A DNA stretch of 64,000 bases from a virus: IMG/VR virus record IMGVR_UViG_3300046777_002658, positions 64,001 through 128,000 of that record; one strand, written 5' to 3'. The translations under genes were made by a program, and so were the position numbers. The notes under the pieces are model-generated. The model saw only the letters and a program-made list of their open reading frames with translations, had not been told where the DNA came from and made no database searches. This document shows, piece by piece, positions 33,066-40,194 of the stretch (its first letter is position 1; each line of letters begins with the position of its first letter).

Positions 33066-33113
33066 TAGTGAGCAAGCATATCATATAATACTTTGATATG
33101 CTTGGTAAAGCAA

Positions 33114-33187
33114 GCCTCTCTAGCTCAACCAGATAGAGCAGCGTTCTTCTAAAGCGCAGGTTGAAAGTTCAAGTCTTTCGAGAGGCT
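33114..33187 (+). tRNA. trnR-UCU: tRNA-Arg (anticodon TCT)
   Basis: Acceptor GCCTCTC/GAGAGGC, D stem GCTC/GAGC, anticodon stem GCGTT/AGCGC with loop CT-TCT-AA, T arm GAAAG-TTCAAGT-CTTTC; no encoded CCA. Confidence 0.95.
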
Positions 33188-33213
33188 TTTCCAGCAAGAA
33201 AAAAGAATAGGGT

Positions 33214-37989: not shown

Positions 37990-38018
37990 TTGCGCTTTTG
38001 GAGAAAGTAAGCTATACT
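37990..38018 (+). promoter_or_regulatory. Host sigma-70-type promoter
   Basis: TTGCGC, 17-nt spacer, TATACT. Confidence 0.65.
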
Positions 38019-38024
38019 AAGAAA

Positions 38025-38680
38025 AGTAGCAAAAGAGGGTCAGACAGCTAAGGCTGATAAAGACTCAATCTAATAGCTATTAGGCAGAGGTTACAACGGT
38101 CGTAACAAACACACTAGATAGGCGCGTTGGCCGGGCTCAGGGAAACTCCTCCCGGTATGGGGGCATATAGTCAACATAACGAACACCAACGATACTCACT
38201 GAACTTGAACCCTTCCAGTAATTATGGGCACTCCATAAGCTTAAAGTAGAAAAGAAAATACTGTTGAAAGACAGCTTCTATAGAGAGTTGGAACTGAAGA
38301 AGGGGCGTGGTACTGAGATCCTTTACCACGAGACGCGAAGAGGCATGAAGCCGTTAGAAACCGTCGAGCAAGTCTTCTATCTTTTGTGCTGCCTATTCAA
38401 CACTTTGTTCTACCAACAAAAGCACCAAACAATGCAAGCAAACTCCGTTCAGCGAAATCCCACCAGTAGAAGCAAGTTTATATTGCTGTTGGTAGAGCGG
38501 AGAGTAACCATAACAGATTGTAAGGTTAACTAGGATGTAGCAGACTTGGTAACAGAATGTCTTGTTACCTGTAAAAGTCGAGCAATCCAGGTAAGAACGT
38601 TTAGAAGGCATAGCCAAGGCGTAGTCGTATGACTGCGGGCAATAAGAGATTCTAGCATTGGCTGGAGTCTCTTATTGTTT
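38025..38680 (+). ncRNA. Candidate large (about 650 nt) structured RNA upstream of an HNH gene
   Basis: Starts at the predicted TSS; stems at 38090/38106, 38131/38155, 38222/38238, 38306/38330, 38407-18/38487-98, 38548/38569, 38620/38637, 38640/38677. Confidence 0.55.
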
Positions 38681-38705
38681 TGAAGTACACAACAGAGGAT
38701 TGCTT

Positions 38706-39464
38706 ATGCTAAAGGATTTGATAAAGTCTAAAAAGAAAAAAATAGAACTTCTTGTAGAACTTCTTAAAGAGAAGCTAGACAAAAAAAGCAAGAAGCCACA
38801 ACGTTGGGTTCTGAGATTTACAAACTCTCAGGGATTTGCTAAAGAATCCTTACTAAACTTGCTGACAGAAATTGGCTTGTTCCAGTTCTACTCTAAGAAC
38901 AACAGTAAGCTACTTAACGTCTCTCAAGTAGTGTATTACTTAAAGAGCGGCTGGAAAGCACTAGAAAATGGTTACACAGCAGGCAAGTCATCTGAGGTAG
39001 AAATTCATCATATAGATGGTGATATTACCAACGATAGCCCTCACAACTTGGTTGCTTTATTCAGTGGAGACCACTATTACGTCTCTGCTTGCCAAAATGG
39101 AACTTTCAGACTGGAAGATTTTTTCTGGCAGAATAGCAAAGCCACCGACCAGCCAACCCTCTTTAATAATCAAGGTAGACCAATCAAGAACCACGCTAAG
39201 TTCCTGCAACGCATAATCGCAGCTACCCTCTTCAACACCCAACGCTGGCTAGAAAAAGCAGCAATGCGAACAGGTGCTAAGGTTAAGCAGATAGTAGGCT
39301 GGGTGGTCAAAAAGCTGGGTCAAGCAGTTGAAAAAGGTGTTCAGGCTATCAAGGCTATAGCAGTGAAGCCCCAAGAAAATCAGCTCGGCAGCCCTTTACT
39401 TAACTCTCCCAAAACTACTTGGAGAGAACTCAGAAGAGCTATTCTCAAACCTGTTATAGTTTGA
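38706..39464 (+). CDS. HNH endonuclease (track start 38658)
   Basis: EIHHIDGDITNDSPHNL...DH at 39000-39075; AGAGGA RBS before ATG 38706. Confidence 0.8.
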   Translation: MLKDLIKSKKKKIELLVELLKEKLDKKSKKPQRWVLRFTNSQGFAKESLLNLLTEIGLFQFYSKNNSKLLNVSQVVYYLKSGWKALENGYTAGKSSEVEIHHIDGDITNDSPHNLVALFSGDHYYVSACQNGTFRLEDFFWQNSKATDQPTLFNNQGRPIKNHAKFLQRIIAATLFNTQRWLEKAAMRTGAKVKQIVGWVVKKLGQAVEKGVQAIKAIAVKPQENQLGSPLLNSPKTTWRELRRAILKPVIV

Positions 39465-39564
39465 ATGCAAGAAAAAAGAATAGAGAATGATAAAAGATAA
39501 AACAAAGTTGACGAACAGTTCGTCGCTGCTATGATTCTGTTAATTAATAAGGTATCAACAATGT

Positions 39565-39765
39565 TTGACTATGAAAACACAACAGGAAGCTGTACACGTC
39601 CTTCTCCAGAACGGCTGGAGTACAAAGGAAATAAACCTTTTATTCAACCGGAAGCAATCTTGCCCTATTCCACCTTGGAGTCCAGAGAAACAACAAATCG
39701 CTCAGTCGTCTTCTACAAAAGCCTTGAGTATTTCTTTCTCTATTCCCAAAACTTCCCAGAGCTAG
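39565..39765 (+). CDS. Hypothetical protein (66 aa)
   Basis: One of two overlapping ORFs; the choice is uncertain. Confidence 0.4.
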   Translation: MTMKTQQEAVHVLLQNGWSTKEINLLFNRKQSCPIPPWSPEKQQIAQSSSTKALSISFSIPKTSQS

Positions 39766-39804
39766 GAGTAATAATAGGGGGTTAATGTACAAAAGGAAAA
39801 CAAC

Positions 39805-40020
39805 ATGACAGAAGATATAAAATCATTAGCTCTACAAGCAGTTCAAACATGGGGTAACAAACCTCAGTTGTCTCAAGCTACAGAAGTAGCAGAAGAAGTG
39901 GCTGACTGCCAGCTAATGCTTGAACAGATAAAGCTGATAGTTGGCATACCAAAAGATGTTATGCAAGAAGTACAGCAGACCAAGCTTAAGAAGCTGAAGA
40001 GAGGGTTAAATGCAGAGTAA
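39805..40020 (+). CDS. Short MazG-like protein, possibly internally deleted
   Basis: QAVQTWG..QL...EEVADCQLMLEQIK. Confidence 0.55.
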   Translation: MTEDIKSLALQAVQTWGNKPQLSQATEVAEEVADCQLMLEQIKLIVGIPKDVMQEVQQTKLKKLKRGLNAE

Positions 40021-40194
40021 AAGAGCTAGACGTAGGGCTAGAGGGTTAGAGAGAGTTAAGAAGATAATCAGGAGTTTAACAGGGACTTTTAGTTTTGAGT
40101 ATACTCACATAGTAATAAGAAGAGGCAGTGTTCAAGCTTTCTGCCTACCGTCTGGCTTTTTATTAAACTTATCTACTCCTGGTCTGTACTCGTT

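Follow-up and report, generated by a model that had tools for sequence, protein, structure and literature searches.

In OMEGA loci a structured RNA, HEARO or omegaRNA, lies directly 5′ of the gene for an HNH-containing protein, IscB, IsrB or IshB. HNH nucleases are also found as free-standing homing endonucleases; those of the HNH_3 type (PF13392), exemplified by I-HmuI, show a patchy distribution and changes of site. SegB is a free-standing homing nuclease located beside the T4 tRNA cluster. The solitary CRISPR-repeat anti-CRISPRs (Racr) are phage RNA decoys. That phages can evade ToxIN by mimicking toxI is well established (PMC3920263), and the pseudo-ToxI of phage phiTE is such a mimic (Blower 2012, as cited in PMC3920263). 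GOLLD, ROOL and OLE are large ornate RNAs (PMC12286853). SroH, finally, is a bacterial RNA found together with yjaZ, also called htrC (NCBIfam NF007263); literature searches found no described function for either E. coli SroH or YjaZ, and nowhere found YjaZ named as a toxin.

Here we analyse a 64,000-nucleotide stretch of viral DNA (the window; positions 64,001 to 128,000 of IMG/VR record IMGVR_UViG_3300046777_002658), in which a large structured RNA is predicted in front of a gene for a compact HNH endonuclease. As with pseudo-ToxI and Racr, the phage has the RNA half of a host RNA–protein unit and lacks the protein. Whereas those are short repeats directed against proven defence systems, the RNA described here is large and non-repetitive, is built from several unrelated blocks, stands beside an HNH gene and has a putative target system. 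It resembles GOLLD in being a large structured phage RNA that varies in its 5′ part and is conserved in its 3′ part, but unlike GOLLD, ROOL and OLE it is tied to an HNH gene and holds an SroH domain. The arrangement, with the RNA directly 5′ of an HNH-containing gene, is that of HEARO and omegaRNA, but unlike OMEGA the HNH cassette showed, in the loci compared, neither a family-wide scaffold nor a site-tracking guide. The nuclease shares its core, patchy distribution and changes of site with the I-HmuI-type HNH_3 enzymes, and differs from them in its distinct flanking domains and in the dedicated large RNA in front. RNA mimicry itself is known; new here are a candidate phage RNA mimic that travels with a mobile nuclease and three folds without an Rfam family. 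No account of this RNA-HNH family came up in literature searches. The earlier note on this DNA had called the RNA undescribed, which holds for the RNA as a whole but not for its block D, a diverged SroH that the note had missed.

The window is part of a virus record of 196,877 bp that is 94% complete and in which the cassette locus is single-copy. A spore-photoproduct-lyase-like (SPL) gene lies 5′ of the locus. The host is probably a cyanobacterium, because the cultured relatives of the HNH protein are found only in Microcystis and Microcoleus phages and on Synechocystis plasmids. A search of the phage for nblA found none.

The 252-aa HNH open reading frame and its ribosome binding site (RBS), reported earlier, were confirmed (Table 1). 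Its catalytic residues are H101/H102, N114 and H123; across the family H102 and N114 are invariant, H101 is present in 96% of members and position 123 is H in 81% and N in 19%. The retention of these residues makes nuclease activity probable. Pfam, PHROGs and Atlas agree on an HNH_3 assignment and PHROG HNH families were matched; the Pfam match is weak (E 1.3e-3, below cut-off), as is the sequence match to I-HmuI (E 0.4). The N- and C-terminal parts are helical, basic extensions (model pLDDT 81.6), and fold searches with the model returned no clear structural match, the results being filled by the C-terminal helix. The earlier note had seen no PLMP or RuvC motif and had set the protein apart from IscB/HEARO, and we agree. 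HNH_3 was the sole Pfam family matched, NCBIfam gave nothing, neither a RuvC nor a PLMP family was matched, the alignments contain no conserved PLMP motif, and the RNA has no match to the HEARO covariance model (RF02033). The family was taken as ten close relatives at 50–73% identity and 106 representatives at E≤0.001. Loci of close relatives were obtained by exact look-ups only; pattern scans of viral, metagenome and genome contigs brought up no further ones.

Table 1. Features of the RNA-HNH cassette, in window coordinates.
Feature	Position	Strand	Description
Promoter	37990..38018	+	weak −35 at 37990-37995, 17-nt spacer, −10 TATACT at 38013-38018, predicted start ~38025
5′ hairpin	38026..38080	+	left arm variable; from fold; counterparts in L003, L006, L007 and L010
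Block A	38081..38395	+	multi-stem domain of ~315 nt with a 7-bp long-range closing helix
Block C	38424..38526	+	three nested helices; tip is a conserved 13-nt loop
Block D	38533..38606	+	diverged SroH (RF00372) core: P1, P2, P3 and a 4-bp pseudoknot
Two small hairpins	38607..38639	+	first optional among relatives, second conserved
Terminator-like hairpin	38640..38681	+	17 bp (38640-38656/38661-38677) plus T run, ~25 nt 5′ of the HNH start
HNH_3-type endonuclease	38706..39464	+	252 aa; ATG at 38706, stop at 39464, RBS 38695-38699

Counted from the promoter start to the terminator, the predicted RNA spans about 38025-38681, or roughly 655 nt. The sigma-70 promoter proposed earlier stands in part: its −10 element is conserved, but the −35 matches at only three of six positions and a consensus scan did not call a promoter. 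A similar −10 lies 5′ of the leader in all 17 loci inspected (found by eye, then by motif), and we retain the promoter because of this conservation among relatives. The hairpin and T run are predicted to form the 3′ end. The 17-bp closing stem was confirmed, with several compensatory pairs, and closing hairpins like it are also present in L007, L123 and L127. The absence of a credible ORF from the leader also stands, despite an 89-aa TTG frame at 38264-38533, because that frame has no Pfam match and is broken by an 11-nt gap in L006.

The RNA is highly structured, as had been claimed. The window fold has a z-score of −3.9, with none of 20 shuffles as good, and a strand comparison of the window RNA gave −5.8 for sense against −1.0 for antisense. 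Ten random 400-nt pieces of the genome, used as controls, ranged from −1.9 to +3.2, and the sense strand of six relatives from −3.4 to −7.6. Across seven sequences, 13 of the 65 pairs predicted for the 3′ half show two-sided changes. One element of the earlier description fell away: the 12-bp long-range helix (38400-38418/38487-38505) appears only in the minimum-energy fold of the window copy, and the homologues place its 3′ strand in another, local, covarying hairpin. The window RNA region gave no Rfam match at the gathering cut-off or at E≤10, the GOLLD, ROOL and OLE models included. The claim that there is no group I or II intron core fits both this and the setting of the RNA, which is flanked by intact ORFs and has a promoter and a terminator of its own. 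Comparison with the hairpin ribozyme, twister, RNase P, group I P7 and group II domain V showed required elements to be missing or misordered. A role in plasmid replication (CyRepX) was also set aside, a literature search showing no link to HNH.

Comparison of the relatives revealed that the RNA is a string of exchangeable folded blocks and not one scaffold. From 5′ to 3′ the window copy consists of the 5′ hairpin, block A, block C, block D and the terminator. Block A is found in the window, L006, L008, L010 and L011; it has nine pairs with two-sided change among three sequences, and no Rfam match. In its place L003 and L007 carry an unrelated block B, and L009 a third block. Block C is present in all eight close relatives with DNA at this position, in diverged form in L007, and block D is missing from L007 and partly deleted in L011. 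The window and L003 cassettes occupy the same site after the SPL gene and have C and D in common, yet one carries A and the other B; the blocks have therefore been exchanged in place. All three of A, B and C are RNA folds that covary and fall outside any Rfam family. BLAST found no host counterpart of A or C in 401 genomes of the cyanobacterial phylum, or of B in 301, blanks that are weak because BLAST recovered one of the nine SroH copies found by profile. For block C a covariance-model search of 150 cyanobacterial genomes likewise found no host counterpart. DNA patterns for the conserved hairpin and block C gave chance matches only.

For block D a bacterial counterpart was found. Rfam sroH matches L006, L010 and L003 at 23–26 bits (E 0.024–0.14), short of the gathering cut-off of 80 bits, and did not detect the window copy; pattern searches brought up many further SroH copies. 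Block D can be aligned with enterobacterial and cyanobacterial SroH over a core common to all, with P1 paired in 100% of alignment cells, P2 in 98% and the pseudoknot (38541-38544 with 38601-38604 in the window) in 98%. One pseudoknot position is AU in 10 sequences, CG in 4 and UA in 1, and the pseudoknot covariation score was reached by none of 500 shuffles, although kinship among the sequences can inflate it. P3 also covaries, being U-A in the phage and cyanobacterial copies and C-G in the enterobacterial ones. The Rfam model has the terminator as its sole structure and contains neither the pseudoknot nor P3. Block D agrees with SroH in the P1-P2-P3 core, in the pseudoknot and in the invariant junction bases, and in both a hairpin and terminator come next. 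With the cyanobacterial copies it also has in common the P3 variant and the stretch that comes after P4. The difference lies in the setting: block D lies inside a 655-nt phage RNA, at the 3′ end, and has the HNH gene on its 3′ side in place of a convergent yjaZ. The window copy is the most drifted, with three G-U pairs in P1 and one pseudoknot mismatch.

A blind BLAST search with the whole L006 RNA against the 401 genomes returned a single match, an RNA beside yjaZ (E 4e-8). SroH lies tail-to-tail with yjaZ in all nine cyanobacterial genomes of this sample from which the yjaZ 3′ end was recovered, most of these RNAs behind their own promoter. In most bacterial contigs checked it abuts the stop codon of the convergent yjaZ, and the pair is frequent on plasmids. 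We take block D to stem from this two-gene SroH-yjaZ unit of bacteria. In the phage record, 94% complete, tblastn with two YjaZ queries (E≤1) found no yjaZ; as in other RNA mimics, the RNA half of a host RNA–protein pair was found without the protein gene. YjaZ had no match in Pfam or the PDB and is unrelated to the HNH family. In L287-L295 and L251 every cyanobacterial yjaZ gene is met tail-on by an SroH-like RNA that ends in a terminator and in most cases has a clear promoter.

Collecting HNH homologues, aligning their upstream DNA and testing covariation, as the earlier note had proposed, showed that a conserved, covarying large RNA accompanies the gene in close relatives. Where upstream DNA was available these have a promoter, 570–690 nt, a terminator-like hairpin, an RBS and the HNH gene, at the window site in L003 and beside other neighbour genes in L006, L007 and L010. 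Distant relatives (28–35% identity) mostly have their own promoter 210–610 nt upstream, among them the MaMV phages, My-WqHQDG, pSYSA, pSYSG, L126, L127 and L137-L139. Their leaders are alike within subfamilies (pSYSA and L299; L137 and L138) and unrelated between them. The expectation that the upstream RNA is kept with the gene therefore holds for close relatives but not family-wide, L132 and L298 being without a long leader. Fold z-scores of some distant leaders are −2.7 to −4.7, and those of pSYSA and pSYSG are +1.2 and −0.1.

No clean empty site was seen among the relatives, Ma-LMM01 being a deletion derivative. In this phage (NC_008562.1, L124:2107-2143) the promoter and first ~170 nt of the MaMV leader are followed by a 37-nt CRISPR-DR5-like repeat, which stands in place of the remaining leader and most of the HNH gene. 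The CRISPR-DR5 match is single and full-length (32.8 bits, E 0.26). The repeat could be a solitary-repeat anti-CRISPR RNA, as a candidate, or a recombination scar; as a single case, it fits a site that takes up host-derived RNAs.

Several members of the family are in cultured strains and phages. HNH genes are present on pSYSA (L130:3601-4642) and pSYSG (L131) of the model cyanobacterium Synechocystis PCC 6803. The pSYSA gene, by gene order probably slr7057, has a leader of ~330 nt that is conserved in L299. The HNH gene is unannotated in MaMV-DH01 (L122:3872-4507) and MaMV-DC (L121), where an opposite-strand shadow ORF is annotated instead; the same gene is annotated as 17R in MaMV-CH01, and the MaMV-DC leader has a foreign insertion. 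The leaders of My-WqHQDG (L123) and L127 have in common a 46-nt segment at 78% identity and the same promoter offset, which by its sequence appears to be a further conserved block of that subfamily. On a plasmid of Synechocystis B12 the HNH gene has an IS200/IS605 tnpA inserted in its 5′ part (L134:3502-3948).

What, then, does the RNA do? The earlier note proposed an RNA-associated, perhaps RNA-guided, HNH system or a new class of large phage ncRNA. In a guided system block C and the terminator would serve as scaffold and a variable segment as guide. The order of RNA then nuclease is that of OMEGA loci, the HNH residues are intact, the helical extensions of the protein are basic, the 5′ hairpin has a variable left arm, and block C alone is present in all close relatives. 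However, the variable 5′ stretch changes independently of where the cassette is inserted: L006 and L010 have it in identical form although their upstream genes differ, and it is similar in L003 and L007, which occupy different sites, and unlike in the window and L003, which share one. Compared with the flanks and the genome it gave no significant match, the best being 16 nt at E 0.11. A cis-derived OMEGA-type guide is therefore unlikely, a judgement from few loci; a guide supplied in trans is conceivable. There is in addition no family-wide scaffold and no HEARO match, and the fold searches gave no RNA-guided nuclease, although there the C-terminal helix filled the results. Overall we regard a guided nuclease as quite improbable. 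Since block D is SroH, and SroH is tied to yjaZ, cargo or a decoy is indicated rather than a guide scaffold. In L009 a truncated HEARO RNA (L009:1-133, minus strand; 67 bits, E 1.9e-11) points away from the cassette promoter, and an OMEGA element therefore probably adjoins the cassette there.

The RNA might instead work for the HNH gene itself, either as an attenuator in cis or, in an addiction-like arrangement, as an RNA antitoxin that restrains a toxic nuclease, the SroH block being a recruited structural part. Most family members, in phages and plasmids, have a promoter and a 210–690-nt leader, often with a terminator, and the leader is kept within each subfamily. Against this, no leader sequence is common between subfamilies, unrelated 5′ blocks precede proteins that are 60–73% identical, L132 and L298 have little or no leader, and a simple attenuator has no need of 550 nt of covarying blocks; we think this explanation unlikely. 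That the blocks are self-cleaving or processing elements, cutting the transcript or tuning expression, with SroH perhaps a ribozyme or ligand-binding fold, seems very unlikely. Block D is a compact pseudoknotted fold with invariant junction bases, and the loop region of block C, to our eye, loosely resembles loop B of the hairpin ribozyme, but no ribozyme family was found at E≤10, helix 4 and the loop-A cleavage motif are missing from block C, and a protein partner is suggested by how strictly SroH is linked to yjaZ. Least credible is neutral debris gathered beside a homing nuclease. The drift of the window block D, its partial loss in L011, the truncation in Ma-LMM01 and the insertion in MaMV-DC are what debris would leave, but the two-sided pair changes in the 3′ half, the folding of the sense strand in six relatives and the conserved promoter and terminator all argue against it.

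Our preferred, and still tentative, reading is that a mobile HNH gene carries modular RNA cargo, probably antitoxin or defence decoys, to which we would give a probability of about 0.45. A host-type promoter would make the ~655-nt RNA, ending at the terminator, and read-through of the terminator would supply small amounts of a free-standing HNH endonuclease, which would spread the cassette by ordinary protein-directed homing. Block D would act in trans as a decoy, binding, silencing and titrating host YjaZ, a putative defence toxin, much as pseudo-ToxI does ToxN. Blocks A and C would probably be decoys or effectors for other host RNA-binding systems. The in-place block swaps, varied neighbours, linkage of SroH to yjaZ, Ma-LMM01 repeat and precedent of ToxI mimicry speak for decoys; the drifted window block D, the partial loss of D in L011, blocks A, B and C without a host counterpart, and the presence of YjaZ in 10 of 401 sampled genomes speak against them.

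A bolder version of the cargo and decoy reading, which we hold as doubtful, is that cyanobacterial phages carry an HNH-mobilised RNA decoy array of swappable RNAs taken from host RNA–protein defence systems. Equally speculative is that its sources would be SroH, CRISPR repeats and further undiscovered ones, with SroH-YjaZ a new class of RNA-antitoxin anti-phage system. If there is such an array, each block would mark an undiscovered host system. The locus suggests that phage counter-defence RNAs may be large modular arrays and not short repeats, and the orphan phage SroH gives a direct, testable hypothesis for E. coli SroH and YjaZ. Because the HNH family occurs in cultured Synechocystis PCC 6803 (pSYSA), MaMV and Ma-LMM01, the guide, attenuator and cargo models can be separated by ordinary experiments.

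Some further features of the record lie outside the cassette. A tRNA-Arg(TCT) is encoded at 33113-33188 of the window, and a tRNA-like sequence also lies just 5′ of the cassette promoter in L139. On the 3′ side of the HNH gene a second long stretch (39464-40194) has no ORF of at least 95 aa, and within it a promoter-like site with a 10/12 match is located at 39508-39535. Beyond the window, near position 135348 of the record (G000:C1), an 806-aa open frame contains an HNH-like stretch (family-profile E 7e-7), and is perhaps an in-frame mobile nuclease.
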